Assembly: GCF_003966335.1 (NCBI RefSeq)
Contig: NZ_CP034549.1
Coordinates: 660,001 to 692,000 of the forward strand
Length of the DNA stretch: 32,000 bases
Reading direction: 5' to 3'
DNA from: Nonlabens ponticola
Lineage (GTDB): Bacteria; Bacteroidota; Bacteroidia; Flavobacteriales; Flavobacteriaceae
The notes under the pieces are model-generated. The model had not been told where the DNA came from and made no database searches. It saw only the letters and a list, made by a program, of their open reading frames with translations. Both the position numbers and the translations under genes were made by a program. Shown here in pieces: positions 4,615-32,000 of this stretch; the stretch's first letter is position 1; each line of letters starts with the position of its first letter.

Positions 4615-4630
4615 AGCTTTCGCGAAAGCT
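4615..4630. repeat. GCTTTCGCGAAAGC palindrome copy (16-bp perfect palindrome AGCTTTCGCGAAAGCT), intergenic
   Basis: Read directly. The core is at 4616-4629 and the right flank TATCAAACCA is at 4634-4643. Confidence 0.95.
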
Positions 4631-4698
4631 AACTATCAAACCACTACATCAACACGATAACAAGCATGTGTAACCACAGCCAACTTGAGCAAATGCCT

Positions 4699-4706
4699 TA
4701 AATTTG
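4699..4706 (+). promoter_or_regulatory. Candidate Bacteroidota -7 box (TAAATTTG) for pheS
   Basis: It matches TAnnTTTG and lies 20 nt upstream of the pheS ATG. No well-spaced -33 TTG was found. Confidence 0.3.
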
Positions 4707-4726
4707 CATCCTATTGAAGAGAAAAA

Positions 4727-5746
4727 ATGCTGGATAAGGTTACAGAACATATTAAGAAAGTCGAGTCGTTCAAGGCGAGTGATGCTGCTGCGGTAGAGGC
4801 TTTCAGGATTGAATATTTAGGGACTAAGGGTTTGCTCAAGGAATTGTTTGCGGCCTTTAAGGAAGTGCCCAACGAGCAGAAAAAAGCCTATGGTCAGGCG
4901 ATCAATGAATTGAAGCAAAAGGCGACTGATAAGGTACAGCAACTCAAGGATGAGCTAGAATCAAAGGAAGAAGAAGCTGGTGTTTACGGCGATTTAACCC
5001 GATCTGGTTACCCGATTGAGGTAGGCTCCAGGCATCCTATTTCTATTGTGAAAAACCAAATTATCGAGGTATTCTCACGCATAGGTTTCAACGTGAGTGA
5101 AGGTCCAGAGATTGAGGACGACTGGCACAATTTTACCGCACTCAACCTGCCAGAGCATCACCCAGCGCGCGATATGCAGGATACTTTTTTCATCCAGACA
5201 AATCCTGATGTGTTGCTGCGTACGCATACATCCAGCGTACAGGTGCGATATATGGAAAATAACAAGCCGCCTATCAGGACGATCTCGCCAGGTCGTGTTT
5301 TTAGAAATGAGGCGATAAGTGCACGATCGCACTGTATTTTTCATCAGGTAGAAGGTTTGTACATTGACAAGGATGTGAGTTTTGCAGACTTAAAGCAAAC
5401 GCTGCTTTACTTTACCAAAGAAATGTTCGGCAAGTCAAAAATCAGGTTGCGCCCATCCTATTTCCCATTCACAGAACCCAGCGCAGAAGTTGATATCTAT
5501 TGGGGTCTAGAAACTGAAACCGATTACCGTATCACAAAAGGTACGGGCTGGCTAGAAATCATGGGTTGTGGTATGGTAGATCCTGCGGTACTCACAAACT
5601 GCGGTATTGATCCAGAGGAATATAGCGGTTTTGCCTTTGGTATGGGAATCGAGCGCATTGCGATGTTATTGTATCAAATAGGTGACATACGCATGTTCTT
5701 TGAAAACGATGTGCGTTTCTTGAAGCAGTTTTCCAGCACCTTGTAG
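4727..5746 (+). CDS. pheS: Phenylalanine--tRNA ligase alpha subunit
   Basis: Class II aaRS motifs are present: HPARDMQDTFF, LLRTHTSSVQVRYM, PGRVFRNEAISARSHCIFHQVEG and GFAFGMGIERIAML. The length is 339 aa. Confidence 0.95.
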   Translation: MLDKVTEHIKKVESFKASDAAAVEAFRIEYLGTKGLLKELFAAFKEVPNEQKKAYGQAINELKQKATDKVQQLKDELESKEEEAGVYGDLTRSGYPIEVGSRHPISIVKNQIIEVFSRIGFNVSEGPEIEDDWHNFTALNLPEHHPARDMQDTFFIQTNPDVLLRTHTSSVQVRYMENNKPPIRTISPGRVFRNEAISARSHCIFHQVEGLYIDKDVSFADLKQTLLYFTKEMFGKSKIRLRPSYFPFTEPSAEVDIYWGLETETDYRITKGTGWLEIMGCGMVDPAVLTNCGIDPEEYSGFAFGMGIERIAMLLYQIGDIRMFFENDVRFLKQFSSTL

Positions 5747-6211
5747 TGGCGATTGGTAAGCTCATTTTTGTCTACAATGCAAATTCTGGCCGTATCAATT
5801 CCTGGCTGGATAGCGCACACAAAATCATAAGTCCATCTACCTATCAATGTAAGTTGTGTGAACTGACCCATGGTGCTTTTACAGAGCATGATGAGTGGTC
5901 ACGCTTTCGAGAGAGCCTTGCCGGCGAGCGAGAAGTTTATGCCGGACTCGATCCGGCACGAAAGCTTGCTAGAATCAAACACACAGTTAGAATTTTTGCA
6001 CAAGGATGAATTCAAGCAACGCTACTGGTCAAAATGGTTGCCTAAGTACGATTTCCCAATTATTTTAAGCACCAGCGATGACTTGCAGAAAGATTACCAC
6101 GCACAAGGCAATAGTACTGGAATGGATATCTTTATGACGGCTGGTGAGATGGATGCGTTGGAAACAACGGAAGAGATGATAGTTGCTATTAAGGAAAAAT
6201 TGAAAAGCTAA
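5746..6211 (+). pseudogene. Small conserved protein (N-terminal CxxC, central EFLHKDEF) split into two ORFs by a 49-nt insertion
   Basis: ORF 5746-6009 (frame 1) carries the N-terminal half up to ...HDEWSRFRES. ORF 5870-6211 (frame 2) carries ...ESLLESNTQLEFLHKDEFKQRYWSKWLPKYDFPIIL. Removing nt 5910-5958 joins them in frame as one ~139-aa protein. The GTG start overlaps the pheS stop (TAGTG). Confidence 0.6.
5910..5958 (+). other. 49-nt insertion at the exact centre of a GCTTTCG|CGAAAGC palindrome; contains its own hairpin
   Basis: The half-sites GCTTTCG (5903-5909) and CGAAAGC (5959-5965) flank the insert. The internal hairpin is TGCCGGA-CTCGA-TCCGGCA at 5940-5958. TGCCGG is repeated directly at 5919-5924 and 5940-5945. 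The length is 3n+1, which explains the frameshift. Confidence 0.6.
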
Positions 6212-6214
6212 ATC

Positions 6215-6613
6215 TTGAAAAAAGACATCACCATACCAGAAGTTAAAGACGTTCACATAGCTGTAGTCCACGAGTGGAACGAGGATTTTTCATCGCATGA
6301 TTGGGTCATCTACTTGATCAACAATATGAGAGAACCCATGGAAAGCGTCATGATCATGAGTCGCGGCAAGCATCGTGATGGTCGCAAGACATCAACCTTC
6401 AGGCACGCATTTAAAGTAGTGCCGGCCAAAAGTTCCATAAGAGTCGAGCTCATCATGGAAGACGTCTTCCCATTTCTCAACGAGTTTATCTTGACCTATT
6501 TCAAGGATAAAACACTATATGACAAGACCTACATGGCCGCGCCGAACACGATCAACGAGAAAAATTTAAAAGATTTACCAGTGATGGATGTGCAAGGTGT
6601 GATGATTGATTAA
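6215..6613 (+). CDS. Hypothetical protein (132 aa, TTG start)
   Basis: The ORF starts 4 nt after the preceding stop. I recognise no motif. Its stop codon interlocks with the convergent gene in TTAA (6610-6613). Confidence 0.45.
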   Translation: MKKDITIPEVKDVHIAVVHEWNEDFSSHDWVIYLINNMREPMESVMIMSRGKHRDGRKTSTFRHAFKVVPAKSSIRVELIMEDVFPFLNEFILTYFKDKTLYDKTYMAAPNTINEKNLKDLPVMDVQGVMID

Positions 6614-7143: not shown

Positions 7144-7234
7144 GATCTAGTTTTTTTATAAAGGTAGTAATAAGGACATTTTGCTAGGCGTGGGCAGTAC
7201 ACATTTTGTAAATTGTAATCCTAATTCAACAACC

Positions 7235-8320
7235 ATGAGATTTTTATACCTGATTATTTTCAGCTTTATCCTTACCTCTTGCAATCAACCAGCAGAAACT
7301 ACTGCCCAACAACCTACTCAAGAACAACCACAACAAACCAGTGAGTTTGCCATTGTTATTCATGGCGGTGCAGGAACCATCAAAAAAGAGAACATGACGG
7401 CAGAGTTGGAACAGCAATACAACGACAAGCTTACTGAAGCCATAAAAGTAGGTCATGACATTCTCAAAAACGGCGGTAGCAGCGAGGACGCTGTAGAAGC
7501 CACCATTAGAGTGATGGAAGACTCTCCACTATTCAACAGCGGTAAAGGTGCGGTGTTCACTCACGATGGCATCAACTCACTAGATGCAAGCTTTATGGAA
7601 GGTAAAACACTCAATGCTGGTGCGGTCGCTGGTGTAACGACTGTAAAAAATCCTATCTCGCTTGCGCGAAAGGTAATGACAGACTCAGAACATGTGTTAT
7701 TGTGCGGTGATGGTGCAGACGCTTTCGCGAAAGCGGTACAAGATTCCACCATCGAGATCGTTTCCAACACCTATTTCTACACAGAAAACCGATTCAAAAG
7801 TTTGCAGCGCGTTCTGGATCGAGAAAGTCAAAAGGAAGAAGCTGAGAGCAAAAAAACAGCTTTAAACCAACTACAGCTTGAAGATCCGTTCTTAAAAGAC
7901 AGCAAATACGGAACCGTAGGTTGTGTTGCCCTAGACAAAAACGGAAACATCGCAGCAGGAACCAGTACTGGTGGCATGACCAATAAGCGTTATGGTCGTA
8001 TAGGCGACTCACCAATCATTGGTAGTGGCACCTATGCTAACAATAAAACTTGTGGTGTAAGCTCAACGGGACATGGTGAGTATTTTATACGCGCACAAGT
8101 AGCTTATGACATCAGCGCATTGATGGAATATGGTGGCTTGACACTCAAAGAAGCTACCGACAAGGTGATCCAGGAAAAGCTAGTAGATATGGGCGGTACC
8201 GGTGGCATTGTCGCACTGGATTATTTGGGTAACGTGTCCATGGAATTCAACACACCAGGAATGTACCGCGCCATGATGAACGATCAGGACGAGCTGGTTG
8301 TTGGGATGTATAAGGAGTGA
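7235..8320 (+). CDS. Isoaspartyl peptidase / plant-type L-asparaginase (Ntn hydrolase), lipoprotein
   Basis: The ATG at 7235 gives the signal and lipobox MRFLYLIIFSFILTSC, so the TTG at 7181 in the ORF track is probably too far upstream. Motifs seen are IHGGAGT, the autoproteolysis site GTVGCVALD, and STGGM, GRIGDSPIIG, GHGEYFIR. Confidence 0.85.
   Translation: MRFLYLIIFSFILTSCNQPAETTAQQPTQEQPQQTSEFAIVIHGGAGTIKKENMTAELEQQYNDKLTEAIKVGHDILKNGGSSEDAVEATIRVMEDSPLFNSGKGAVFTHDGINSLDASFMEGKTLNAGAVAGVTTVKNPISLARKVMTDSEHVLLCGDGADAFAKAVQDSTIEIVSNTYFYTENRFKSLQRVLDRESQKEEAESKKTALNQLQLEDPFLKDSKYGTVGCVALDKNGNIAAGTSTGGMTNKRYGRIGDSPIIGSGTYANNKTCGVSSTGHGEYFIRAQVAYDISALMEYGGLTLKEATDKVIQEKLVDMGGTGGIVALDYLGNVSMEFNTPGMYRAMMNDQDELVVGMYKE
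7720..7735. repeat. GCTTTCGCGAAAGC palindrome copy (16-bp CGCTTTCGCGAAAGCG) inside the isoaspartyl peptidase gene
   Basis: Read directly. The core is at 7721-7734 and is translated as AFAKA in GDGADAFAKAVQ. Confidence 0.95.
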
Positions 8321-11226: not shown

Positions 11227-11745
11227 TTACGGTAATAATTGCTTAATGACGTCGCTCAATTGAGGGTTTTCTGGTCCCATAGCGTTGTTATCTAAAAGCG
11301 TACCATCTGCCGTATAGATCATGAACCGCGGTATATCAAAAAATTTGTTTTCTTCATAGAATTTGCCTTGAGGATAATTGCGAGCGATGTAATTGTGCTC
11401 TAGATCTACCTGTGCGGCAAATGATTTCCAGTAACTGTTGTTCCTATCTGTCGATATATGGATGACCTCGAAATCATCGCTATTCACATCACTTTTTAAT
11501 TGATCAATATCTTCAAGCCGCTTAACGATGTCACCACTGTACGTGTTCCAGAAATGAACATAGGTTATTTTGCCTTTGTTTTGATCTATTAGATTTTCTA
11601 ACGTATAATAATAATCGTCCTCATCTGTCAACTGTACCACTTTATTAGAACTAGTATCAGCATCCATGTAGTGCAACGGCTGTTTGCTTTCATCCTTGCA
11701 ACTCGTCATGAAGAAGGCCAGAATTATAATAAATAGTTTTCTCAT
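11227..11745 (-). CDS. Thioredoxin-fold (TlpA-like) lipoprotein lacking the CxxC active site
   Basis: The lipobox is FFMTSC. At the position where redoxins carry W-C-x-x-C the sequence reads YVHFWNTYSGDIV. The ATGA start overlaps the radA stop. Confidence 0.5.
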   Translation of the reverse strand: MRKLFIIILAFFMTSCKDESKQPLHYMDADTSSNKVVQLTDEDDYYYTLENLIDQNKGKITYVHFWNTYSGDIVKRLEDIDQLKSDVNSDDFEVIHISTDRNNSYWKSFAAQVDLEHNYIARNYPQGKFYEENKFFDIPRFMIYTADGTLLDNNAMGPENPQLSDVIKQLLP

Positions 11746-13115
11746 GTAAAAAGTTGTTTAACCAGCTCTTCAATGCGAGAAACGCCGTGAGCTTGTATGG
11801 TAGTGTTGTTGGTTTTGGATTTTGACGGTGCAATGAAGATTTTGTCAAAACCTAATTTGGCGGCTTCATTAACACGTTGATCGGTACGGCTTACCGGTCG
11901 TATCTCGCCGCCTAGACCAACCTCTGCACTGTAGCAATGTTGTGAGCTTATCTCGATATCAAAGTTTGATGATAGGATCGCCACGACGACTGCAAGATCA
12001 ATGGCTGGATCGTCCACAGTAATGCCACCGGTTATATTCAAGAAAACATCTTTTTGTCCTAATTTGAATCCAGCACGTTTTTCCAGAACGGCAAGGATCA
12101 TGTTTAATCTTTTCAAGTTATAACCTGTTGCACTGCGCTGTGGCGTTCCATACACCGCTGTACTTACAAGCGCCTGCACCTCTATCATGAGTGGCCGCAT
12201 ACCTTCCATTGTGGCGGCGATGGCAGTACCACTTAAATTATTGCCACGTTGTGAGATAAGTAGCTCGCTGGGATTGCTTACCTCGCGCAAACCATGTCCT
12301 TGCATTTCATAAATACCTATCTCGTGCGTACTACCAAAACGGTTCTTAAGCGCTCGCAATATCCTATAGGTATGATTGCGGTCACCTTCAAATTGAAGCA
12401 CGGTATCAACCATGTGCTCAAGAATTTTAGGTCCGGCGATATGACCGTCTTTTGTGATGTGTCCTATCAATAAAACAGGCGTTCCTGTTTCTTTGGCAAA
12501 TTTGATGAGTTCACCGGTACATTCTCGTATTTGAGAAACGCTACCAGCCGTACTTTCAATATGATCGGTCTGCAGCGTCTGGACAGAATCGATGATCAAT
12601 ACTTGCGGTTCAAAGTCTGCAATCTGGCGGAATATGTTTTGCGTCTTGGTCTCTGTCAAGATATAGCAATTGTCCACGTTTTTCTCAATGCGCTCTGCAC
12701 GCATCTTGATCTGGTGGGCGCTTTCCTCACCACTCACATAAAGCGTTTTATAAGGTAATCGCAAGCATAACTGTAATAACAGTGTTGATTTACCTATTCC
12801 TGGCTCACCACCTAATAATGTTACAGATCCTGATACCAGGCCACCACCTAAAACACGATTAAATTCTGCATTTGTGGTGTCGAGTCGTGGACTTTCAGTC
12901 GCGTCGATTTGCGAGATGCGTTGTGGTTTTTGGGTACGCTTTCGCGAAAGCGTAACATCACCACCAGCAGCCTGCTCCCAACTGGGTTTGGTATTTTTTT
13001 CAACCACTTCTTCTACCAGCGTGTTCCACTCTTTGCATGCGGTACACTGGCCTTGCCATTTGGCATGTTGAGCGCCACAGTTCTGGCAGTAGTAGGTTGT
13101 CTTGACTTTGGCCAT
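11742..13115 (-). CDS. radA: DNA repair protein RadA (Sms)
   Basis: It has an N-terminal zinc finger (YYCQNCGAQHAKWQGQCTACKEWNT), Walker A (GGEPGIGKST), the KNRFG motif (LKNRFGSTHEIG) and a Lon-like C-terminal domain. The length is 457 aa. Confidence 0.95.
   Translation of the reverse strand: MAKVKTTYYCQNCGAQHAKWQGQCTACKEWNTLVEEVVEKNTKPSWEQAAGGDVTLSRKRTQKPQRISQIDATESPRLDTTNAEFNRVLGGGLVSGSVTLLGGEPGIGKSTLLLQLCLRLPYKTLYVSGEESAHQIKMRAERIEKNVDNCYILTETKTQNIFRQIADFEPQVLIIDSVQTLQTDHIESTAGSVSQIRECTGELIKFAKETGTPVLLIGHITKDGHIAGPKILEHMVDTVLQFEGDRNHTYRILRALKNRFGSTHEIGIYEMQGHGLREVSNPSELLISQRGNNLSGTAIAATMEGMRPLMIEVQALVSTAVYGTPQRSATGYNLKRLNMILAVLEKRAGFKLGQKDVFLNITGGITVDDPAIDLAVVVAILSSNFDIEISSQHCYSAEVGLGGEIRPVSRTDQRVNEAAKLGFDKIFIAPSKSKTNNTTIQAHGVSRIEELVKQLFT
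12935..12954. repeat. GCTTTCGCGAAAGC palindrome copy extended to 20 bp (TACGCTTTCGCGAAAGCGTA) inside radA
   Basis: Read directly. The core is at 12938-12951. It is translated on the minus strand as TLSRKRT, in the variable linker between the Zn finger and the ATPase domain. Confidence 0.95.
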
Positions 13116-13165: not shown

Positions 13166-14149
13166 TTAAGATTGAGCTGTTTTCTTGCGCCACGAAAAAA
13201 GCGCAAAACAAATCAATCCCAATATGACGACAAGCAAAGTTTGCGACAACCAGACAATCCAGCCGAATGCTGTACCCACAACCTGTGTGTAGCCAAATAT
13301 CACCAGTACATTACTGATCAGATAAGGATAGGCGCCAAAACCACCGTTTGTAAAAGCAACGGCGAAGCTGCCTGCCGCAAAGGCGCATAACAATGCGCTT
13401 ATCGACATACTGTCTGTATCGGGAATAGCGTAGATGCATATATAAAACATCAATAGGTACATCGCCCAAATAAACAGCGTGTGCGCCAGATAATACCATT
13501 TGTGTTGCATGGTCCAGATGGTTTCAAATCCTTCTTTGAGACCGTTGAGAAAAACCTTGATCTTCTGTCCCAACTCAAATTTCTTGATCAACCAGAATGC
13601 AATGATAGCGGCAATTACTAGAGCTATTGCTATGTATAATAGTTGTTGTGAGTTAGCTTTCGCGAAAGCGGAATTCAAACCATCCTTAAAGAAATCTATG
13701 ATCTTATCGCTCGCAGTTAAAATCGCGGTCGCTGTGATGGCAAGTAGAATCACAAAGTCTAGAACACGCTCTGCAATGATGGTTCCCAATCCTTGATCGA
13801 CGGGAATGTCGTCAGTTTCCTTAACAATCAAGGCACGGCTCAACTCGCCACTGCGCGGTATGATGAGGTTCATAGCATAGCCAGAACCAATGGCGATCAT
13901 GTTGTTTACAAAATTGGGTTTGATTCCCAAGGCACTCAACATATAGGACCAGCGCCACGCACGTGATAGGTGGCTCAACAAGGCAAATAACATACCCAGC
14001 GCGATAAAACGGTAATCTGCCTGAATGAGATATCCCTTGATCTCTTCCAGTTGGGCAGCCGTAAACTGATTGTACGAGATGATGATTAAAAAAATGCCTA
14101 ATGCCAGCGGCAATAGGATTTTTAGCGTTTTTATGAATGCTTTTTTCAA
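13166..14149 (-). CDS. Polytopic membrane protein, UPF0104 / lysylphosphatidylglycerol-synthase-TM-region (flippase-like) family
   Basis: It has about 8 predicted TM helices, an N-terminus of KILLPLALGIFLIIISY and an RAWRW motif after TM2. The family call is from memory. Confidence 0.6.
   Translation of the reverse strand: MKKAFIKTLKILLPLALGIFLIIISYNQFTAAQLEEIKGYLIQADYRFIALGMLFALLSHLSRAWRWSYMLSALGIKPNFVNNMIAIGSGYAMNLIIPRSGELSRALIVKETDDIPVDQGLGTIIAERVLDFVILLAITATAILTASDKIIDFFKDGLNSAFAKANSQQLLYIAIALVIAAIIAFWLIKKFELGQKIKVFLNGLKEGFETIWTMQHKWYYLAHTLFIWAMYLLMFYICIYAIPDTDSMSISALLCAFAAGSFAVAFTNGGFGAYPYLISNVLVIFGYTQVVGTAFGWIVWLSQTLLVVILGLICFALFSWRKKTAQS
13656..13669. repeat. GCTTTCGCGAAAGC palindrome copy inside the UPF0104 membrane-protein gene
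   Basis: Read directly. It is translated on the minus strand as AFAKA in LNSAFAKANSQ. The right flank GGAATTCAAACCA is at 13670-13682. Confidence 0.95.
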
Positions 14150-19823: not shown

Positions 19824-19845
19824 ACAAGTTCATAAAATACTATCA

Positions 19846-19874
19846 AGCCTCATTCATACAATGGGGCTTTTTTT
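19846..19874 (+). terminator. Rho-independent terminator after glmS
   Basis: The stem AGCCTCAT / ATGGGGCT has 8 bp including one G-U pair, with the 7-nt loop TCATACA. It is followed by a run of 7 T. Confidence 0.6.
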
Positions 19875-19882
19875 ATGGTTAC

Positions 19883-19896
19883 GCTTTCGCGAAAGT
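19883..19896. repeat. One-mismatch copy of the palindrome (TTACGCTTTCGCGAAAGt), intergenic
   Basis: Read directly. The left arm carries the TTACGC extension seen at 28696. The right arm has diverged after AAAG. Confidence 0.8.
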
Positions 19897-20150
19897 TGAC
19901 TCTTTCTAGGCCTGGCAGTAAGCCTGACGTCTTTCAATATATCCAGACCATTGTTATTTTGGCGTTCGCTCTAATTCAATAATAAGTTAGCGCAGTGTTG
20001 CACTTAGCGAAAGAGTAGTATTTAATAGGTTCAAATTTATTTATTTTCAATATCTATATAGAGTACAACTTCACGCTAACAAGATTGTTGCAATGAATTA
20101 GACAGTAAAAAAAATGATATATAATATGCAGTGTAGATTGTGTTGATTTT

Positions 20151-20164
20151 GCTTTCGCGAAAGC
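20151..20164. repeat. GCTTTCGCGAAAGC palindrome copy, intergenic
   Basis: Read directly. The right flank GGAATTGTAAACCA (20165-20178) resembles the flank of the 13656 copy. Confidence 0.95.
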
Positions 20165-20319: not shown

Positions 20320-21831
<1,512 letters not shown>

Positions 21832-23913: not shown

Positions 23914-24453
23914 TTATCTGCTTTTATTGAACTCCTGAGCAAACCAATTAAAAGTCTCATTTGCCTGATTGACAATTTTGTCTTGCTGCTCTTTTGAGAA
24001 GTCTACAGCTTTCATTTCTTTCATAAATTGTCGCCAGCGCATGGCGCGCTGCGGTGTGCCAGCTGCATAAAATTGCTGGTCTGGTAAATGAGCTAGGTGC
24101 TCGCATTGCTTGATATGCTGGGCAATCATGGCGCCACCCAGTAAAGAACCCTCGATCACGTATTTGATGCCCAATTGGTTTTCTATAGTTGCGCTTTGAG
24201 GTTTGTAAGATCTTGGAGTAAATGTAGGATCGATAGCTTGCAGGTCTGCTAGTATCCATGCAGCTATGCTGTTGTTTTGTGATGAGGATAGATGAGATTC
24301 TGCTTTCGCGTAAGCGTGATAATTTGCCTGTAACAGCTTTTTATATTGAGAAAGAGTAATTGAGTGATCCATGATGCGATGGGCGCCACTTACTTGCTCC
24401 AGATCAATGTGCGCTGGTCTGGTTTCTTCTCTCAATCTATTGAGTATGCTCAC
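23914..24453 (-). CDS. bphO: Heme oxygenase (biliverdin-producing, BphO-type)
   Basis: The N-terminus LNRLREETRPAHIDLE includes the proximal His context. It is 179 aa. The GTG start overlaps the upstream TAG by 1 nt. It is the last gene of the phytochrome operon. Confidence 0.7.
   Translation of the reverse strand: MSILNRLREETRPAHIDLEQVSGAHRIMDHSITLSQYKKLLQANYHAYAKAESHLSSSQNNSIAAWILADLQAIDPTFTPRSYKPQSATIENQLGIKYVIEGSLLGGAMIAQHIKQCEHLAHLPDQQFYAAGTPQRAMRWRQFMKEMKAVDFSKEQQDKIVNQANETFNWFAQEFNKSR
24302..24315. repeat. One-mismatch copy of the palindrome (GCTTTCGCGtAAGC) inside bphO
   Basis: Read directly. It is translated on the minus strand as AYAKA in NYHAYAKAESH. Confidence 0.7.
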
Positions 24454-25016
24454 TATTTGATGATGGTTTTTAAGCGATCGCCGATGTTTGAGAGCAATTT
24501 TGTATAATACTCCTGTGTGGTTTCTTGCTTATCATCTGCCATCGCTGCTTCTTTGAGCAAGCTGTGGATTTCTTCTAGTTTTTCTCGCTCTTGACGCTCG
24601 CGCTCCAGCTTGTCAAAAAGTCTTGATTTTTCGACTATAAGTCTTTCTAATATCGGCTCCAGCTTTTCATGAAGGTTGTTGATATCGTTTTTAAGTAAAT
24701 ATGCAGAGGCTCCTTTAAGGACTGCGTTTGCGGCTAGTTCTTCATCATTGAGCGTACCTGTAATCATTACGATGGGCACTGCTGGATAAATGTCCTTGAC
24801 GTTCTCAATCACGTCCATACCTGTAAATCCTACAAGAGCATAATCTGTAAATACAAAATCTGGTATAAAGGTCTTGAGCGCATGCCTTACTTTGAGAATG
24901 CTATCACACATTACAATTTCTGGATCGCTAATGGTTTTGCGCACCTGTCGCTGTATGAGCGCAGCATCTGTAATGCTATCCTCAACTATAAGAATCTTGA
25001 GTTTCTTGTCTATCAT
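24453..25016 (-). CDS. Response regulator: receiver domain plus ~65-aa charged coiled-coil tail, no DNA-binding domain
   Basis: The ATG at 25016 (MIDKKLKILIVEDS) lies 1 nt after the upstream TAG. Receiver residues are VEDS, the FTDYAL acceptor Asp, MITGT and YLLKN. The tail reads EKSRLFDKLERERQEREKLEEIHSLLKE. Confidence 0.8.
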   Translation of the reverse strand: MIDKKLKILIVEDSITDAALIQRQVRKTISDPEIVMCDSILKVRHALKTFIPDFVFTDYALVGFTGMDVIENVKDIYPAVPIVMITGTLNDEELAANAVLKGASAYLLKNDINNLHEKLEPILERLIVEKSRLFDKLERERQEREKLEEIHSLLKEAAMADDKQETTQEYYTKLLSNIGDRLKTIIK

Positions 25017-25017
25017 T

Positions 25018-25452
25018 CTAATTAAGATTAAGGTGCAGCCAATAATGCAAGGTCTCCTTAAGGACATCCTTGAGATTACTATAGCTTGACGGTTTCACTA
25101 AATAACTATTTGCTTTGTGCTTGTAGGCACTTATGAGGTCGTTGGGGTGTGTACTAGAGCTCAACATCACTTTAGGCACGCGATCAAATTCTTGTTTCTT
25201 CTCCATGATCTCCAGCACTTCAATACCTGAAATCTTAGGCATCTTGATATCTATAAACATCAGATCTGGTCTGTGACGTAATAATTCACCATTTTCAAGC
25301 ATACGTAAAAGCTCATCAGCATCAGTTATGCTCAATATCTCTATATAAGGGAAATCTTTTGCTATGACACGTTTCATTAACGCAATATCTTCCTCGCGGT
25401 CTTCAATAATGACCACTTTTTTAGTGGTCTGGTCTTTATTTAATTCCTCCAT
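25018..25452 (-). CDS. Single-domain response regulator (Rcp1-like phytochrome partner)
   Basis: Motifs seen are VVIIEDREEDIAL, DLMFIDIKMPKISG, VPKVMLSSS and ANSYLVKP. The start overlaps the bphP 3' end by 17 nt. Confidence 0.85.
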   Translation of the reverse strand: MEELNKDQTTKKVVIIEDREEDIALMKRVIAKDFPYIEILSITDADELLRMLENGELLRHRPDLMFIDIKMPKISGIEVLEIMEKKQEFDRVPKVMLSSSTHPNDLISAYKHKANSYLVKPSSYSNLKDVLKETLHYWLHLNLN

Positions 25453-27670
25453 GACCTAAATAAAATTTAAAAACGGAACCCTCATTAGGTGTTCCTTGTG
25501 CCCAGATCTCGCCGCCGTGTTTGATCACCACGCGTTGCACAATAGCAAGGCCTACACCAGTTCCTTCATATTCATCCTTAAACAGCCTACTAAAAACACC
25601 AAAAATCTTTGTTGCGTACTCTTGATCAAATCCAATGCCGTTGTCCTTGACAAAATATATTTCTTTCTCACCATCGTTTTTTGAACCTATTTCAACGACT
25701 GGATTCTCTTTTTTTGAAGAGTATTTGAGAGCATTGCTTATGAGGTTTGCAAATAACTGATAAATCATACTTGCATCGCCATACAAATCTGGCATTTGAT
25801 CGTCTATGATAATCCTACTATCTGGATACTTGACGTGGTATCTGTTCTCTTTGAGGATACGCTCACATAGTTGAGGCAGCTTGATATGGTCATCGATAAG
25901 CGTCGTTTGACTCATGCTGCTATAACTTAGAATATCGTCCATGAGGCTATTCATCTTACTAGCGCTATTGATAATGGTATTCAAAGAGTCTTTACCATAT
26001 TCATCCAATACATCGTCATAGTCTTCCTTAAGTATTTGTGCAAAACCGTCGATACCGCGCAATGGCCCACGCAAGTCGTGACTAACACTATAACTAAAGC
26101 TTTCCAATTCCTGATTCAAGCTTTCTAATCGTTTGTTTAGCATCTTGATCTCGCCATATCTAGTGACGATGATGTTTTTTACATCAGACACTAATGCTTG
26201 TGCGCTGGCTTTCTCATGGTCTTCCCATGGTTCACTGGTACATTTTACCGTTTGAGAGTACTTTTCAAATGATTTGCGAGGTGACAACCTGTTTTCAGAC
26301 TCGTTGTCAAGATCCGTTTTAGATGGATCGCCGCCCCAATTTATTTGTGACAGCTTCTCTTTTTTGAACCAGATGAGCGCTTCATCGTTTTTATTTGAGA
26401 TTTTAAAATACAGTATTCCAGAGAGGTCTTTACCGTACTTACTTGTCCATGGAAATACTGCAGACAAGCAGTCTGTTTCAAAATACTGTTCTTCTTTGCC
26501 TATCTTTTTACGTATCTCATTGGACAATCGCTGCATTACTTTGCGATCTGGACAAGTGCCTATCGTTGCATATTCTTGATCGTAGAACACAGCAAACCCA
26601 TGGGCAGGTATAAGGCTTTTACCTGTTGTTTGAAAACTAGTAAGTCCAGCTACAATGTCCCAATTTTTACTCATCTGCTTGACGAGTTTTGAGCGTACGG
26701 CAGCAGCTTTATTGATATTCTTAATGTGAACATCACTGTTTTTGAGCGTGATTTGGTTACTTACCATTTCAGCAAGAAGTTGACAGGACTTTCTTTTATG
26801 GTAACCTATAAACTTTGGCGAGTAGTGATGACAGGCGATCAAGCCCCATAGTTTACCATTGTGAACGATGGCGCAATTGAGCGTGGCATCCACTTTCATA
26901 TTATTCAAATACTCAACATGAATGGGTGATGAACCACGCAAGTGTGATTTACCTGTAGGCAGCAATGCGCCAGTAACAGGATTGATAGATGGTAAGATAT
27001 CGCTGTAAGATCTGGATAGATCACTTAAAATACGCACGCCTTGTTCAAGAAACAATTTGCGAGCATTTGCAGGAATGTCGCCTGCTGGATAATGTAATCC
27101 CAGCCATGATTTAAGTTCAGGTTCACGCGCCTCTGCAACGATCTCACCATTCCATTGATCGTCAAAACGGTAAACCATGACCCTGTCATAATCTAGCATA
27201 TCTTTTACAAGATCTGCGATGGATTGTGTGAGCTCTTGAGCGGTTCCAGTCTTATGCAAATTATGCAAAACATCCAGCATTTCCTGCTGGAAGGCAATAG
27301 GATCCCAATCAAATGTTTCAGGCTCAATATCTATAAGGGTCAATGCATCGACTTGATGAGGTATGGCAGTATATTGATGATCGCCAGACTTAAAAATAAA
27401 CGGCACATGATCCTTCTTCTTTATTAGCCAAGAGTTGAATCGTTCACTAGTAGCTTTATCACATAAATCTTCTAACCTTTTACCCAAGGCATCAGCATGA
27501 TTGATGTCTAGAAATTCATGGATGTTTTGAGATACTTGAATGACCTCTTGTTTGTTATCAAGAACCAATAAAAACCCATGATGTTGCGTCCTAGGTATCA
27601 GGTGAATAGGCTCGCTCTCGCAGGTGGTTATATCCGTAGGTTCTGGATAAGATGTGAGGTTATTTTCCAT
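25436..27670 (-). CDS. bphP: Bacteriophytochrome histidine kinase (PAS-GAF-PHY-HisKA-HATPase)
   Basis: The N-terminal Cys context is DITTCESEPIHLIPRTQHHG. GAF motifs are HYPAGDIPANARKLF and SPIHVEYLNNMKVDATL. The PHY tongue motif is SPRKSFEKY. The H-box is FSYSVSHDLRGPL and the ATP lid is VKDNGIGFD and GTGVGLAIV. I prefer the ATG at 27670; the ORF track uses the TTG at 27679. Confidence 0.9.
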   Translation of the reverse strand: MENNLTSYPEPTDITTCESEPIHLIPRTQHHGFLLVLDNKQEVIQVSQNIHEFLDINHADALGKRLEDLCDKATSERFNSWLIKKKDHVPFIFKSGDHQYTAIPHQVDALTLIDIEPETFDWDPIAFQQEMLDVLHNLHKTGTAQELTQSIADLVKDMLDYDRVMVYRFDDQWNGEIVAEAREPELKSWLGLHYPAGDIPANARKLFLEQGVRILSDLSRSYSDILPSINPVTGALLPTGKSHLRGSSPIHVEYLNNMKVDATLNCAIVHNGKLWGLIACHHYSPKFIGYHKRKSCQLLAEMVSNQITLKNSDVHIKNINKAAAVRSKLVKQMSKNWDIVAGLTSFQTTGKSLIPAHGFAVFYDQEYATIGTCPDRKVMQRLSNEIRKKIGKEEQYFETDCLSAVFPWTSKYGKDLSGILYFKISNKNDEALIWFKKEKLSQINWGGDPSKTDLDNESENRLSPRKSFEKYSQTVKCTSEPWEDHEKASAQALVSDVKNIIVTRYGEIKMLNKRLESLNQELESFSYSVSHDLRGPLRGIDGFAQILKEDYDDVLDEYGKDSLNTIINSASKMNSLMDDILSYSSMSQTTLIDDHIKLPQLCERILKENRYHVKYPDSRIIIDDQMPDLYGDASMIYQLFANLISNALKYSSKKENPVVEIGSKNDGEKEIYFVKDNGIGFDQEYATKIFGVFSRLFKDEYEGTGVGLAIVQRVVIKHGGEIWAQGTPNEGSVFKFYLGHGGIK

Positions 27671-27795
27671 AAACTTCAAAGTTTTTAAAAATAGTCTTTT
27701 CCTCGATTTTTCTTACAATATGTTTAATGAAAATAATTGAATACTGAGAATTCTTTAAAAACAGGACTACAACTAGCTTTACGTCCTTTATCCTG

Positions 27796-27807: not shown

Positions 27808-28929
27808 ATGCTACCAGACAAACTTCTCGCGCGATTAACGACCCGTCATCAGGCTGGTAGCATGCGTGAGCTCAAGGTCATTAGCAATCTTATCGATTTT
27901 GCTTCAAATGATTACCTGGGTTATGCTCGCCATAAATATGACATTGCTTGTATTTCTAATGGTGCTACAGGATCGCGACTGCTCACTGGCCAGAGTATTT
28001 TACACCAGCAGGTAGAAGAAAAAGTGGCTCATTTTCACGAGGCAGAATCTGCATTACTGTTCAATTCTGGATATGATGCAAATTTGGGTTTGATTAGCAG
28101 CGTTGCCCTGCGTGGTGATTTAATTTTATACGATGAGCTGGTACACGCCAGCATCAGGGATGCCATTAATTTGAGCTATGCCCGGGCTCTTAAATTTCGC
28201 CACAATGACTTGGGTCATTTGTCTATTTTGCTAGAGAAATTTAGCGATGGTGATGATCGCAATGTTTATATAATTACAGAGAGTGTTTTTTCCATGGACG
28301 GCGATACGCCTAACCTCGTAGCGCTTGTAGAGCTCGCACAAACGGTAGGAAACGCTCATATAATCTTGGATGAGGCTCATGCGACAGGTGTGATAGGCAA
28401 TAAAGGGCAAGGCGCCGCGCAGGCCTATGATTTAAACCAGGATATTTTTGCTCGTGTAGTGACGTTCAGTAAGTCATTGGGTTGCCACGGCGCGGCTGTT
28501 TTAGGAGGTTTTGACCTCACACAATACTTGGTCAATTATGCTCGCAGTTTTATTTATACGACCGCGTTACCGCAGCATGCGTTACATACGATTTTGGCGG
28601 CATATGACCAGCTTCAACAGGATGAGAAGTCGGTGCAGCAATTGCAATCTTTGATCGCGCAGTTCAATAAGATGATTGTTCAAAATGGTTTGAGATTACG
28701 CTTTCGCGAAAGCGTAACACCCATCCAACTATGCATTATAAAAGGTAACGAGAGGACCCGACGAGCCTCACAACAATTGGCGGAAGCTGGATTTGATGTG
28801 CGACCTATTCTATCGCCTACAGTTCCTGCTGGGCATGAACGATTGCGTATTTGTCTGCACACGTTCAACACGCCGCAACAATGCGAGGAGTTGCTGCAAA
28901 AACTGGCCAACATTATCAAAGAACTATGA
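27808..28929 (+). CDS. bioF: 8-amino-7-oxononanoate synthase
   Basis: The alpha-oxoamine synthase pattern is present: NDYLGY, GSRLLTG, DEAHATGV, the PLP lysine in TFSKSLG, and PTVPAGHERLRI. Confidence 0.9.
   Translation: MLPDKLLARLTTRHQAGSMRELKVISNLIDFASNDYLGYARHKYDIACISNGATGSRLLTGQSILHQQVEEKVAHFHEAESALLFNSGYDANLGLISSVALRGDLILYDELVHASIRDAINLSYARALKFRHNDLGHLSILLEKFSDGDDRNVYIITESVFSMDGDTPNLVALVELAQTVGNAHIILDEAHATGVIGNKGQGAAQAYDLNQDIFARVVTFSKSLGCHGAAVLGGFDLTQYLVNYARSFIYTTALPQHALHTILAAYDQLQQDEKSVQQLQSLIAQFNKMIVQNGLRLRFRESVTPIQLCIIKGNERTRRASQQLAEAGFDVRPILSPTVPAGHERLRICLHTFNTPQQCEELLQKLANIIKEL
28696..28717. repeat. GCTTTCGCGAAAGC palindrome copy extended to a 22-bp perfect palindrome (TTACGCTTTCGCGAAAGCGTAA) inside bioF
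   Basis: Read directly. The core is at 28700-28713 and is translated as RLRFRESVT. Confidence 0.95.
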
Positions 28930-29339
28930 AAAAGTTCAAGACGGTGGCCATATTTGTCTATCCAGCCGAGGCGCAAGTCATCAAGGCAAAGCTAGAAAGT
29001 GAAGGCATCGATGTATTCCTGCGCAATGAATATACGGTCGCTGCAGAGCCTTTTGCGAGCAACGCGATGGGCGGCGTCAAGATGCAGGTCTATAAAGAGG
29101 ATTTCCTGCGCGCATTAGGACTTATTGAGAAAGGCTCGCCAGATTTCTCGCAAACAATAACAGAACTTCTTAAGTGTCCCAATTGTAGTAAACGCAGCGT
29201 GAGAGAACAACATGACGTGACTACAGCCACCAACACTGCTGATCGTTTGAAAGCAGTCCTTTACAGTGTTGTTCCTTTTATCGATCACAAGAATTACAAA
29301 TGCACTAGTTGTGCGCATGAATTTGATTTGAATGAATAG
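28926..29339 (+). CDS. DUF2007-like (PII-fold-like 'putative signal transducing') domain fused to a CxxC...CxxC zinc ribbon
   Basis: The ATG at 28926 overlaps the bioF TGA (ATGA); the ORF-track start at 28851 lies inside bioF. The N-terminus is KTVAIFVYPAEAQVIKAKLESEGIDVFLRNE...GGVKMQVYKEDFLRA. The C-terminus carries CPNC ... CTSC. Confidence 0.6.
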   Translation: MKKFKTVAIFVYPAEAQVIKAKLESEGIDVFLRNEYTVAAEPFASNAMGGVKMQVYKEDFLRALGLIEKGSPDFSQTITELLKCPNCSKRSVREQHDVTTATNTADRLKAVLYSVVPFIDHKNYKCTSCAHEFDLNE

Positions 29340-29949
29340 CTATTTTATCACAGGAATAGGAACTGATGTTGGGAAAACGGTGGTAGCCGCCATCATTACC
29401 AAGGCTCTTGAGGCAGACTACTGGAAACCCATACAAAGCGGTCTTGATGAGACCGATAAAGGAACCATGAGTGCACTATTGCCCAATCATTCAGGAACCT
29501 TTCATAAAGAGGCTTATCGATTGAAAACGCCTATGAGTCCACACAAAGCTGCGGAGATTGATGGAGTAACTATTGATTTAACCATGATTTCGAGACCACA
29601 AACCAAGAATCATCTAGTCGTTGAAGGCGCTGGCGGTTTGTTGGTCCCATTAAATGATGAAAACACGATTGCTGATTTGATCGCCTCTACCGATAAAGTC
29701 ATTCTAGTAAGTGCCGGTTATTTGGGTAGTATCAATCACACGCTGATGAGTGTAGAGTGTTTAAAATCCAGAGGGATTACTTGTGCTGGCATCATATACA
29801 ATCATGTAGAACTGGATGGTACTATTGAAATTATTGAACAAATGACTGGTGTACCGACCATAGGTCATATTGAAAAGCACGATGTGATTACACCAGAGTT
29901 GATTGCCCATTACGCTACTACATTCAAAGAAAAATTGCTGGCCTTATGA
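29332..29949 (+). CDS. bioD: Dethiobiotin synthase
   Basis: It has the P-loop ITGIGTDVGKT, then YWKPIQSG and VVEGAGGLLVPL. The start overlaps the upstream gene by 8 nt. Confidence 0.9.
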   Translation: MNSYFITGIGTDVGKTVVAAIITKALEADYWKPIQSGLDETDKGTMSALLPNHSGTFHKEAYRLKTPMSPHKAAEIDGVTIDLTMISRPQTKNHLVVEGAGGLLVPLNDENTIADLIASTDKVILVSAGYLGSINHTLMSVECLKSRGITCAGIIYNHVELDGTIEIIEQMTGVPTIGHIEKHDVITPELIAHYATTFKEKLLAL

Positions 29950-31220
29950 CTAAAGAGCAGCTACTTAAGATTGATGCTCAAAATATCTGGCATCCATTAA
30001 CGCAACATAAAACCGCTGCAGCGCCTTTACCTATTGCACGAGCAGAAGGTAATTACCTGATCGATCATAACGGCAAGAAACACCTTGATGCTATATCTAG
30101 CTGGTACACTTGTAGTTACGGTCATGTAAATCCTGTGCTCACAAATGCTCTTAAAGAACAGGTTGATCAATTACATCACGTGGTTTTTGCAGGAATGACA
30201 CATGAACCAGCGGCACGTCTGTCAGAAAAGCTGCTTAATATTCTACCTTATAATCAGTCAAAATTGTTCTTTTCTGAAAATGGCTCGACCAGTGTTGAGA
30301 TTGCGATCAAGATGGCGTTTCAATATCATTTTAATCGTGGTGAGAAACGCAATGTTGTTTTAGCCTTAGAAAATGGTTTTCACGGCGATACGTTTGGTGC
30401 GATGAGTGCCTCTGGATTGTCGGTTTATAATGGACCTTTTGAGGATTTGCTTATTAAAGTTGAGCGCATTCCAGCACCAACTTCTAACAATATTGAAGAG
30501 GTTCTGGAAGAAGCAGCAAGAATTTTTGAAGAGCATCAGGTTTCCAGTTTCATTTATGAACCGCTGGTACAAGGCGCTGCCGCGATGCAGTTAAACGATC
30601 CGCAGGCTTTGTGCAGATTGTTGAGATTGTGTCAAGAATATGGAGTGGTTACCATTGCCGATGAGGTGATGACCGGATTTGGTAAAACAGGAACTTATTT
30701 TGCCAGTGATCACGTGCTCAACAAACCAGACATTATGTGCTTATCCAAGGCATTGACTGGTGGCATTATGCCCATGGCAATTACTAGTTGCTCGCAAGAG
30801 ATTTATGATGCTTTTCTAGACGATGATACCAGTCGTGGATTTTTTCATGGTCACACCTATTCTGGGAATCCGTTGGGATGCGCAGTCGCAGCCGCTGCGA
30901 TTGATTTATTGACTAGCGATGAGATCCAGCACCAACTCAAAGCTATAGTCAAGGCTCACCAGCTTTTTAAGTCAAGACTGTTGGAGCATGATCAAGTTGA
31001 ATCAGTACGTACCTGCGGTGTGATTCTCGCCTTTGATCTTGTTGGTGAAATATCGCGCTATGGCGATGAGCGCAATGCGATATTTCAATGGTTTTGGAAT
31101 AAGGAGATCTTCTTGAGACCGTTGGGAAGAACTATATACATCGTACCACCATTTACTACCACTGCGGTAGAGTTGCAGCAAGTGTATGAAGTGATGATAG
31201 AGTTTCTGGATCAGCGGTAA
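29946..31220 (+). CDS. bioA: Adenosylmethionine-8-amino-7-oxononanoate aminotransferase
   Basis: The class III aminotransferase pattern is present: IWHPLTQH, SSWYTCSYGH, GFHGDTFGAMS, ADEVMTGFGKTG and the PLP lysine in LSKALTGG. ATGA overlaps the bioD stop. Confidence 0.92.
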   Translation: MTKEQLLKIDAQNIWHPLTQHKTAAAPLPIARAEGNYLIDHNGKKHLDAISSWYTCSYGHVNPVLTNALKEQVDQLHHVVFAGMTHEPAARLSEKLLNILPYNQSKLFFSENGSTSVEIAIKMAFQYHFNRGEKRNVVLALENGFHGDTFGAMSASGLSVYNGPFEDLLIKVERIPAPTSNNIEEVLEEAARIFEEHQVSSFIYEPLVQGAAAMQLNDPQALCRLLRLCQEYGVVTIADEVMTGFGKTGTYFASDHVLNKPDIMCLSKALTGGIMPMAITSCSQEIYDAFLDDDTSRGFFHGHTYSGNPLGCAVAAAAIDLLTSDEIQHQLKAIVKAHQLFKSRLLEHDQVESVRTCGVILAFDLVGEISRYGDERNAIFQWFWNKEIFLRPLGRTIYIVPPFTTTAVELQQVYEVMIEFLDQR

Positions 31221-31276
31221 GTTTTTGATTTGTTGAAGTAAGTTTAGACCCATTTTCCTCATTTTTGCAGGCTCTT

Positions 31277-32000
31277 ATGCTGCTAGAAAATCCTATTTAC
31301 ATTCATGATACGGCGCTGGTTTCACCATTGGGCGATACTGGTTTTGATTCTCATCAAACCAATTTTGCACAGCAAGATGATGTTCTGGTAGGTCGTATCG
31401 ATGATCAATTTAAACAAGAACTTGAGGTGCTTGTCAAAAAACATCCTAAGTATCGCAATCTCGACAGATCTACGTTGCTCGCTATTCTAGCCGCTAGAAA
31501 GTTGCAGATTACTGATGCACAAACGGCGGTAAATATAGGTAGCAGTCGTGGTGCAACGGGAATTTGGGAAGATGCGTATAGTAGCTTTCGCGAAAGCGGA
31601 ACAACACCAACGCAAACCTCACCACTAACAACATTAGGAAATTTAAGTAGCTGGGTTGCACAGGATTTAGGAACTATAGGAACCGCTTTTTCCCACAGTA
31701 TCACGTGCGCCACCGCTTCACACGCAGTGCTTAATGCTATCGCGTGGTTAAACGCAGGAATGGCAACCAGCTTTATCGCCGGTGGTGCAGAGGCGCCGCT
31801 TACTGATTTCACTATTAAACAGATGCAGGCGTTGCGTATCTATTCCCAACAATCTGCCGAGTTTCCTTGCCGTGCCTTGGATCAAAATAAGAATCAAAAC
31901 ATGATGATTCTAGGCGAGGCAGCGGCGTGTTTACTGTTGTCAAAAAAGCCTGTCAAAGGTGGTATCAAAATTATAGGATATGGTACCTCTATTGAGAAGT
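31277..32000 (+). CDS. KAS I/II-family beta-ketoacyl synthase-like protein, 3' end outside the window
   Basis: This is my own translation from the ATG at 31277, and the frame is open to the window end. It reads MLLENPIYIHDTALVSPLGDT...NIGSSRGATG...AFSHSITCATASHAVLNAIAWL (active-site Cys context)...FIAGGAEAPLT...ILGEAAACLLLS. It lies 56 nt downstream of bioA on the same strand. Confidence 0.75.
   Translation, partial: MLLENPIYIHDTALVSPLGDTGFDSHQTNFAQQDDVLVGRIDDQFKQELEVLVKKHPKYRNLDRSTLLAILAARKLQITDAQTAVNIGSSRGATGIWEDAYSSFRESGTTPTQTSPLTTLGNLSSWVAQDLGTIGTAFSHSITCATASHAVLNAIAWLNAGMATSFIAGGAEAPLTDFTIKQMQALRIYSQQSAEFPCRALDQNKNQNMMILGEAAACLLLSKKPVKGGIKIIGYGTSIEK
31584..31597. repeat. GCTTTCGCGAAAGC palindrome copy inside the KAS-like gene
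   Basis: Read directly. It is translated as SFRES in EDAYSSFRESGTTP. Confidence 0.95.

Follow-up and report, generated by a model that had tools for sequence, protein, structure and literature searches.

A 32,000-nucleotide stretch of Nonlabens ponticola DNA (RefSeq assembly GCF_003966335.1, contig NZ_CP034549.1, positions 660,001 to 692,000; referred to as the window) was analyzed for a 14-bp perfect palindrome, GCTTTCGCGAAAGC, which recurs in unrelated genes and in the spacers between them. Seven perfect copies, two copies with one mismatch and one copy split at its centre were counted in the window. The copies and the segments associated with them are the following:

4616-4629: perfect copy, intergenic, in the divergent spacer between an HU-CCDC81/SPOR gene (3567-4511, minus strand) and pheS (4727-5746, plus strand)
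About 5746-6211, plus strand: host of the split copy, a gene of 138 codons in which the motif is read as FRES
5903-5965: split copy, consisting of GCTTTCG (5903-5909), a 49-bp insert and CGAAAGC (5959-5965), with the break exactly at the dyad centre
5910-5958, plus strand: the 49-bp insert, 57% G+C, without target-site duplication, shifting the frame of the host gene
7660-7673: two-mismatch site GCTTGCGCGAAAGG in the asparaginase gene, 61 bp upstream of the perfect copy at 7721
7721-7734: perfect copy in the isoaspartyl peptidase/asparaginase (Asparaginase_2) gene (7181-8320, plus strand), read as AFAKA over the conserved FA dipeptide of the family
12938-12951: perfect copy within a 20-bp palindrome (12935-12954) in the variable linker of radA (11742-13115, minus strand), read as LSRKR
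13656-13669: perfect copy in a loop of the LPG_synthase_TM (UPF0104) gene (13166-14149, minus strand), read as AFAKA
19883-19896: one-mismatch copy (C14T), directly 3' of the glmS terminator (19845-19876)
19897-20150, plus strand: non-coding 254-bp segment in the glmS-atpD spacer, between the copies at 19883 and 20151
20151-20164: perfect copy, intergenic, upstream of atpD (20323-21831, plus strand)
24302-24315: one-mismatch copy (A10T; GCTTTCGCGTAAGC) in the heme oxygenase gene bphO (23914-24453, minus strand), read as AYAKA
28700-28713: perfect copy within a 22-bp palindrome (28696-28717) in bioF (27808-28929, plus strand), read as FRES
31584-31597: perfect copy in a beta-ketoacyl synthase gene (plus strand, running past the end of the window), read as SFRES

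A preliminary description of this DNA had reported the seven perfect copies and the one-mismatch copies at 19883 and 24302, and all of them were recovered by a search of the window. The assignment of seven of the ten copies to genes, the identities of these genes and the frame-dependent peptides AFAKA, LSRKR, FRES and AYAKA were re-found as well. Direct reading showed that the palindrome carries no stop codon in any frame, and the extension of the palindromes at radA and bioF to 20 and 22 bp was confirmed. The split copy proved to be real; removal of the 49 bp restores a frame of 138 codons that is 66% identical to an intact gene in a related locus (L200). At a threshold of two mismatches the window holds eleven sites; the two-mismatch class is made up of the split copy at 5903 and the site at 7660. 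The latter is a doubtful member and may have arisen by chance over the LARKV stretch of the asparaginase, which is conserved in the family.

The abundance of the motif was compared with expectations derived from composition. One hundred dinucleotide-preserving shuffles of the window gave a mean of 0.09 sites at up to two mismatches, compared with the eleven observed. Markov models of orders 0 to 4 trained on the window predicted no more than 3e-4 perfect copies per 32 kb, compared with the seven present. The frequency is thus far above the composition-corrected expectation, in line with the strong over-representation proposed initially, and an origin by chance or composition was ruled out. By extrapolation, seven copies per 32 kb correspond to roughly 600 per genome. 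Among 852 kb of motif-bearing DNA, 216 sites were perfect, 23 had one mismatch and 23 had two, and three-mismatch sites were at background. The density of perfect copies was 254 per Mb in motif loci and 4 per Mb in control loci. When the 120 copies used for ascertainment were subtracted, perfect copies still exceeded all 42 possible one-off variants by about 4:1. Such an excess of perfect copies over near-misses shows that the motif is not a neutrally decaying repeat, which would give the opposite spectrum. It is the signature from which Xu et al. argued for selection on highly iterated palindrome 1 of cyanobacteria (HIP1; PMC5861425), and is equally expected from a conversion-like drive.

The RadA protein encoded in the window is 100% identical to that of N. 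ponticola. Related loci, numbered with the prefix L, were used to follow the motif through the genus Nonlabens and other Flavobacteriaceae. The following numbers of perfect copies were found:

N. dokdonensis (L319): 4 in 21 kb
N. tegetincola (L320): 6 in 21 kb
N. ulvanivorans (L321): 4 in 21 kb
Nonlabens metagenome-assembled genome (MAG) with a RadA 78% identical (L322): 3 in 21 kb
Metagenome lineage with a RadA 75% identical (L323): 3 in 14 kb
Nonlabens-like MAG whose ABC1 kinase is 78% identical to that of the Nonlabens locus L283 (L326): 4 in 21 kb
Gangjinia marincola (L324): none in 21 kb
Psychroflexus torquis (L325): none in 21 kb

Every Nonlabens locus sampled contained the motif at a density of about one per 3.5-7 kb. 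A metagenome scan with GCTTTCGCGAAAGCGKAA retrieved at least 120 loci of 30-43% G+C with 86 further perfect copies in 806 kb. Locus L283, which at 33% is among the lowest in G+C of the scanned loci, belongs to Nonlabens too. In 78 RadA loci of other Flavobacteriaceae genera (1.5 Mb) only six perfect copies were detected, all of them at one codon-conserved site of Flavobacterium. They occur once per locus (L159, L165, L173, L183, L190 and L196, including F. anhuiense and F. panici) in the TLSRKLEE stretch (..TREKTLSRKLEEIL..) of a gene near radA that is not one of the host genes of the window. In Flavobacterium the 14-mer thus reflects ordinary conservation of sequence and has nothing to do with the phenomenon in Nonlabens. 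Conservation of the same codons in distant taxa, which would have provided a trivial explanation, was checked, and apart from this codon stretch the string is absent there; since the other genera do not carry it at the codons in question, ordinary codon conservation was rejected as the cause. The presence of copies throughout the Nonlabens-like lineages and their absence from relatives place the beginning of the trait at the base of a Nonlabens-wide lineage, with a sharp boundary. Dialect palindromes were not seen in other Flavobacteriaceae genera at 20 kb per genome, a sample too small to exclude them.

Sequence context was evaluated for all classifiable copies. As proposed for the window, all three frames of the motif are used: open frames of at least 150 codons contain 136 copies, of which 72 encode AFAKA, 31 xFRES and 33 xLSRKx. 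Open reading frames (ORFs) of at least 120 codons harbor 149 of 213 classifiable copies (~70%), compared with a crude ORF cover of ~85%, and spacers are enriched 2-3-fold. The spacer copies are distributed over all four classes of gene orientation (++, --, -+ and +-) roughly according to spacer length, and no preference for 3' ends or terminators was seen among them. A terminator-associated element, suggested by the copy that follows the glmS terminator, was rejected on this ground. A cost of rare codons was dismissed as well, the codons of the motif being not especially rare in N. ponticola. In locus L283 (about 2280-2335 and 5192-5250), AFAKA is located in N-terminal signal or hydrophobic segments of secreted or membrane proteins (MRTLLIIFCLAFAKAGSS, NKLGSYAFAKATKC), which suggests that signal peptides are a tolerant host context for the motif.

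Comparison of orthologous sites with and without a copy revealed how copies arise. In the ketoacyl synthase gene, the window reads AGC TTT CGC GAA AGC GGA (SFRESG) where locus L286 has CAA TTT GTA AAA ACA GGA (QFVKTG), and the two align without any gap; the corresponding site of L310 is one mismatch away from the motif. The converse case is a copy at position 1492 of L286, where the window contains unrelated sequence of the same length. The RadA proteins of L322 and L323 (P0060 and P0061) do not carry a copy, and their linker is as long as that of copy-bearing Nonlabens. Absence of a length change at these three sites demonstrates change in place instead of insertion of a unit, as had been surmised in the preliminary description. 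Furthermore, AFAKA of the asparaginase overlies the GA..FA motif of the family when compared with solved homologues, and FRES of BioF aligns to E. coli BioF without net change in length. Altogether, these comparisons show that copies are created in place by substitutions, now and then accompanied by small indels, in any frame and in spacers.

Once formed, copies are retained. The asparaginase site at 7721 is also occupied in N. ulvanivorans (L321, position 18035), and the UPF0104 site in L119, L319, L320, L321, L322 and L323, with one mismatch in L120. The site at 19883 corresponds to an orthologous single copy in L259 and L319 and to a one-mismatch copy in L321, and the bioF copy is kept in L259 and L310 at 65-71% nucleotide identity. 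In RadA, LSRKR forms a constant island in nearly all Nonlabens proteins (81-100% identity) surrounded by residues that vary freely; it is absent from L322 and L323. Retention was quantified in alignments of twelve sequences (the window, ten loci of the Nonlabens lineage and L259, a relative for the spacer and bioF), using pairs of at most 85% nucleotide identity. Of 60 ordered ortholog pairs, 44 shared an identical 14-mer and six more differed by one mismatch, compared with 1.7% identical among 17,553 control windows of 14 nt from the same alignments. Formed copies thus persist at orthologous positions, while neighboring and synonymous positions diverge.

The flanks of 95 copies chosen independently of their flanks showed that the constraint extends beyond the 14-mer. 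A C at position -1 was found in 81% of the arms, so that the effective core is the 16-bp perfect palindrome CGCTTTCGCGAAAGCG. Further outward, T is favored at -3 (63%), -4, -7, -10 and -13/-14; at -10 it accounts for 56% overall and 78% in spacer copies. From -3 to about -25/-30, the strand 5' of the core is poor in C (0.04-0.12 versus 0.19) and enriched in G and T, symmetrically on both sides. Pentamers composed only of G and T are 3-4.6-fold enriched in the arms, with a peak of TGGTT at -14/-13, which explains the AAACCA flank noticed in the preliminary description. The right flank GGAA..AAACCA shared by three copies is therefore real; it does not represent a separately propagated unit but a weak symmetric preference on both sides of all copies. 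The profile is alike in coding copies, in spacer copies and in arms upstream or downstream within the host gene, which marks it as a property of the DNA and not as a protein or codon effect.

Although the two arms look alike by eye, they are not complementary beyond expectation. Agreement between the left arm and the reverse complement of the right arm was no higher within a copy than between copies (z at most 1.4 in every distance bin). The mean folding energy of native 74-nt copies was -8.05 kcal/mol, compared with -7.95 to -8.11 kcal/mol for chimeras of left and right halves. The two arms of a copy thus evolve independently, and an extended hairpin or a decayed longer palindromic element was rejected. 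The bare 16-mer forms only a weak hairpin (-4.3 kcal/mol), unremarkable compared with shuffled sequences. In addition, the central CGCG is itself palindromic; a dimer reading a duplex site needs this symmetry, and the loop of a hairpin can do without it.

Phage sequences allowed resident and foreign DNA to be compared. The IMG/VR contigs carrying two to three copies are real, temperate phages encoding a baseplate hub, tape measure, terminase or Mu-like transposase, and one provirus (S49 prohead protease and amidase) contains three copies in 11 kb. The IMG/VR contigs include Mu-like transposable phages (L045, 6208-8205; L078, 1124-3118), whose hosts are presumed to belong to the Nonlabens lineage. 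The cultured Nonlabens (Persicivirga) phage P12024S (L327, 35.7 kb), examined by direct reading, has no site even at two mismatches, whereas about seven copies would be expected at host density. The motif in chromosome-resident DNA and its absence from one cultured phage fit a self-tag built by selection or drive, and the absence speaks against a requirement for the motif when phage DNA replicates in the host. Little follows from it for restriction-type avoidance, because the chance expectation is already near zero. P12024S encodes a DNA methyltransferase of its own (32699-33376).

Three rearrangements coincide with copies of the motif. The small gene interrupted by the 49-bp insert (5746-6211) has no Pfam match; its ortholog in L200 (2625-2930) is intact and carries an intact motif at the same codons, and the gene is probably a pseudogene in N. 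ponticola. No other copy of the insert was found in the window, the related loci or IMG/VR, and all other GCTTTCG...CGAAAGC pairs within 300 bp turned out to be pairings with other copies or stray half-sites. The second rearrangement concerns the glmS-atpD spacer. This spacer contains a single copy in L259 and N. dokdonensis and a one-mismatch copy in N. ulvanivorans; the 254-bp segment is absent from L259. Flanks of the L259 copy match the left flank of the copy at 19883 and the right flank of that at 20151. To judge from the sequence, this layout has the topology that results when a segment integrates between two sites of identical sequence, or when a staggered cut is filled in. The segment has no long ORF, no Rfam match and no homologue in the window, the related loci or IMG/VR. 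Finally, L266 contains an 87-bp tandem duplication (1888-2054; 1.9 copies, 81% match) whose start falls in the right half of a motif copy; 14 nt of this duplication recur as a string in the 49-bp insert of the window (E = 0.7, possibly chance).

Abundance, origin in place, retention, dyad symmetry with independent arms, indifference to frame, strand and transcription, and scarcity in foreign DNA group the motif with HIP1 and uptake sequences. The same six facts rule out that it is a hairpin element capable of transposition, a motif acting in RNA or a peptide motif. It is highly probable that GCTTTCGCGAAAGC belongs to a selected duplex signal that evolves in place, rather than to a mobile element or an RNA. 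The fuller reading, in which it forms the core of a genome-wide, Nonlabens-specific signal of the HIP1 or uptake-sequence kind that is probably used for exchange or recombination, has in our judgment as much for it as against it. Taken separately, the role in exchange or recombination is a tentative proposal derived from analogy. The two remaining ideas of the preliminary description, a DNA-uptake signal and a site for a dedicated binding or cleavage protein, are both compatible with all findings.

According to the proposed mechanism, a putative symmetric, dimeric and sequence-specific protein that arose at the base of the Nonlabens lineage would read the site as double-stranded DNA. The copies would be kept perfect by selection or by a conversion-like drive through biased replacement. 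Most likely, the signal would mark resident DNA as self for exchange or recombination, either by biased uptake in transformation or by stimulated homologous recombination. This guess is attractive because a drive linked to uptake or recombination, which is established theory for the uptake signal sequences (USS) of Pasteurellaceae, would solve the upkeep of hundreds of exact sites. It is also suggested by the links of HIP1 to transformation and a Chi-like effect, together with competence and own-DNA preference in Flavobacteriales. Two preprints link HIP1 experimentally to transformation and to an effect like that of Chi, and both roles have been proposed for it (bioRxiv 10.1101/2024.09.10.611283; 10.64898/2026.06.24.733823). 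Members of the Flavobacteriales have been reported to be naturally competent and to prefer their own DNA, with no uptake sequence identified (Riemerella columbina, PMC7965970). No report on competence of Nonlabens was found in the open-access literature searched.

HIP1 (GCGATCGC) is likewise a perfect palindrome that is hyper-abundant, lineage-specific and present in coding DNA in all frames as well as in spacers. One-off variants are somewhat enriched in both. Conservation of HIP1 at orthologous sites is far above background and implies selection (PMC5861425); the Nonlabens equivalent is the ratio of 44/60 to 1.7%. The two motifs differ in host, in size and in density. The Nonlabens motif occurs in a single genus-level lineage of Bacteroidota and its sequence is unrelated, which makes it an analogue of HIP1 and not HIP1 itself. 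Its core measures 14-16 bp versus 8 bp, its enrichment is at least 2e4-fold versus 15-300-fold, and its density is lower (about one per 4-5 kb). Its long strand-asymmetric G/T-rich arms have no counterpart in the portions of the HIP1 literature consulted. HIP-type palindromes are further marked by orphan methyltransferases that recognize sub-sites of the palindrome and by a periodic arrangement (10-90 kb) on the chromosome.

The DNA uptake sequences (DUS) of Neisseria and the USS of Pasteurellaceae are genus- or family-specific over-represented motifs with sharp phylogenetic boundaries between dialects. Point mutation creates them in place, and proteins accept them in every frame where constraint is lower; they show a 2-3-fold enrichment in spacers, combine a strong core with a weaker flanking consensus and are scarce in foreign DNA. 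The Nonlabens motif is likewise lineage-specific and over-represented, accumulates in place and combines a strong core with weak flanks. Known uptake sequences are asymmetric 9-12-mers that occur about once per kb, are recognized by a minor pilin and are often arranged in inverted pairs that form terminators. The Nonlabens motif differs in being a perfect palindrome, in showing no preference for terminators or 3' ends and in its lower density. The sites of chromosome-organizing proteins offer a third comparison. parS, the Noc-binding site (NBS; ATTTCCCGGGAAAT), the SlmA-binding site (SBS) and matS of MatP are 12-16-bp perfect or near-perfect palindromes that are often genic and read by dimers, and the palindrome with its symmetric flanks would fit this type of site. 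Such sites number tens per genome and are confined to, or missing from, a particular chromosomal region. The TTTC...GAAA half-sites resemble the parS and NBS consensus sequences, but their spacing is 2 bp in the Nonlabens motif as opposed to 4 bp, and the copy number is at least ten times higher than that of parS, NBS, SBS or matS.

The readings that involve a hairpin were weighed against these data. In its high number of short palindromic copies, the motif resembles repetitive extragenic palindromic (REP) sequences mobilized by REP-associated tyrosine transposases (RAYT), miniature inverted-repeat transposable elements (MITEs) and the Rickettsia palindromic elements (RPE), which as units would insert in genes and spacers. 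REPs are extragenic, imperfect stem-loops that occur in clusters, and MITEs have terminal repeats, generate target duplications and add length. Some Nonlabens copies do reach palindromes of 20-22 bp, and compared with other genera the proteins have gained 6-7 residues at the UPF0104 site and 3-5 at the radA site, as an inserting element would predict. However, the three clean presence/absence comparisons are free of length change, neither a target duplication nor a fixed inserted unit was seen anywhere, and the radA linker already has its present length in lineages without a copy. Moreover, ~70% of the copies are genic, their positions do not change across the genus, decayed copies taken together are fewer than perfect ones and the arms are not co-adapted. 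No RAYT gene (IS200/IS605-like TnpA) was present among the window ORFs scanned. The REP/MITE-like hairpin suggested in the preliminary description is thus largely refuted, and a miniature mobile element is very improbable. An RNA-level hairpin with a 6-bp stem and a CGCG loop, serving as a site for an RNase or an RNA-binding protein in transcripts, has even less to recommend it. A palindrome would yield the same RNA from either strand and most copies are in transcribed genes, yet the hairpin is weak and no better than shuffles, its loop is palindromic without need, compensatory pairing in the arms is missing, 15 of 64 spacer copies lie between divergent genes and no Rfam match was obtained. 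A known RNA or tRNA-related repeat was rejected in the absence of any Rfam or tRNA match.

Several points weigh against the exchange signal. The at least 120 related loci were found via the motif itself, so that their densities are only partly unbiased, and the ortholog pairs of the conservation count are not phylogenetically independent. The UPF0104 loop site lies inside a 6-7-residue insertion relative to 50 other genera and the radA linker site coincides with a 3-5-residue insertion, which means that an origin by substitution only is not demonstrable for every copy; the lengths of these insertions differ, and the extra length of RadA predates the motif. The function is drawn from analogy alone, and the known uptake sequences to which it appeals are asymmetric 9-12-mers, ~4-5 times denser and read by a pilin and not by a dimer. 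Neither the G/T-rich, C-poor arms nor the two insertions located exactly at motif copies of the window are predicted by a model of uptake or selection. These insertions hint at breakage or recombination at the motif. In the main rival explanation, a putative lineage-specific and site-specific endonuclease or recombinase would cut or recombine at the dyad, and the motif would then be a two-way recombination initiator or resemble a phage attachment (att) site; no other reading predicts the insertions at the dyad together with arms that are G/T-rich and 3'-ending. TCG|CGA, the inner part of the motif, is a blunt site of the NruI type, the 49-bp insert is placed exactly between GCTTTCG and CGAAAGC without duplication, two copies bracket the 254-bp segment where relatives have one, and half of a motif copy contains the start of the duplication in L266. 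The strands expected to become 3' tails are exactly those on which the arms are G/T-rich, and RecA and Chi prefer G/T-rich DNA. A Chi-like action has been proposed for HIP1 (bioRxiv 10.1101/2024.09.10.611283). Against this stand the small number of anecdotal rearrangements, two or three, to which no statistics apply, and the scarcity of stand-alone half-sites (about 90 in 852 kb, all in motif-bearing loci). Frequent cutting in essential genes would be costly, yet the copies have been conserved for long periods; known Chi sites are asymmetric and oriented with replication, and no nuclease or recombinase candidate emerged from the analysis. We regard a break or recombination site as unlikely when taken as a separate explanation, and it may be part of the same system as the exchange tag rather than an alternative to it. 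A role as an architectural or epigenetic site, bound by a nucleoid-organizing or segregation protein in the manner of Noc, SlmA, MatP or ParB or modified by an orphan methyltransferase, and maintained through selection on the structure of the chromosome, was considered as well. The perfect palindrome has the right size, symmetric flank preferences are typical of a dimer that bends or wraps DNA, and orthologous sites are conserved, with genic copies in any frame and orientation. The sites of Noc, SlmA and MatP number only tens in a genome, as opposed to the several hundred extrapolated from about one per 4-5 kb, and hundreds of exact 16-mers would need strong per-site selection or drive. For HIP1, selection and periodic spacing were interpreted as a structural role (Xu et al., PMC5861425). 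On balance, an architectural site seems rather improbable.

The exchange signal and the cut at the dyad can be combined. Nonlabens might then possess a self-DNA signal that evolved independently of those in cyanobacteria, Neisseria and Haemophilus, in which a putative lineage-specific dimer reads the 16-bp palindrome and a cut at the dyad leaves G/T-rich 3'-ending arms, so that the motif would act as tag and recombination initiator in one. Such a cut and Chi-like site would serve DNA uptake or repair, and from time to time foreign DNA would be captured at its centre. We consider this combination conceivable but doubtful; if true, no such system would have been described before in Bacteroidota, nor one anywhere whose break point is defined. 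The class of phenomenon is known from HIP1 and USS. New are the phylum, the 16-bp core with strand-asymmetric arms and the rearrangements at the dyad. No earlier description of the motif (14-mer, 10-mer core or Nonlabens palindromes) was found in the open-access literature searched, a scope that leaves subscription journals and supplementary files outside.

HIP1-type signals have been unexplained for three decades, in part because they were single-lineage cases, and the Nonlabens motif provides a second, independent case for comparison. Its core is much longer and more specific, its phylogenetic onset is sharp, and complete genomes are available for several cultured species. The question thereby becomes testable through the genes gained at the base of Nonlabens and through a pull-down of the reader protein with a single probe. 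The data also illustrate strong selection on proteins exerted at the DNA level: AFAKA, FRES and LSRK are written into unrelated proteins, and the codons in ~25 nt of flank are shaped on each side. As a near-diagnostic marker, the motif identifies Nonlabens DNA in metagenomes, and it may help to tell prophages of long residence from a cultured phage that is not resident. Judging by HIP1, its inclusion may improve the genetic transformation of Nonlabens.

Some minor observations were made at the loci studied. In L165 (Flavobacterium sp. PLA-1-15), 14 occurrences of the 11-mer GAACTAAAATC were counted within 21 kb; they probably form a local array, either tandem or CRISPR-like (clustered regularly interspaced short palindromic repeats), unrelated to the palindrome. 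In the window, the region 23914-27679 looks like an operon in which bphO is joined by genes for two response regulators and for a histidine kinase of the bacteriophytochrome type. Next to it, at 27808-32000, comes a biotin operon comprising bioF, bioD, bioA and the ketoacyl synthase gene.

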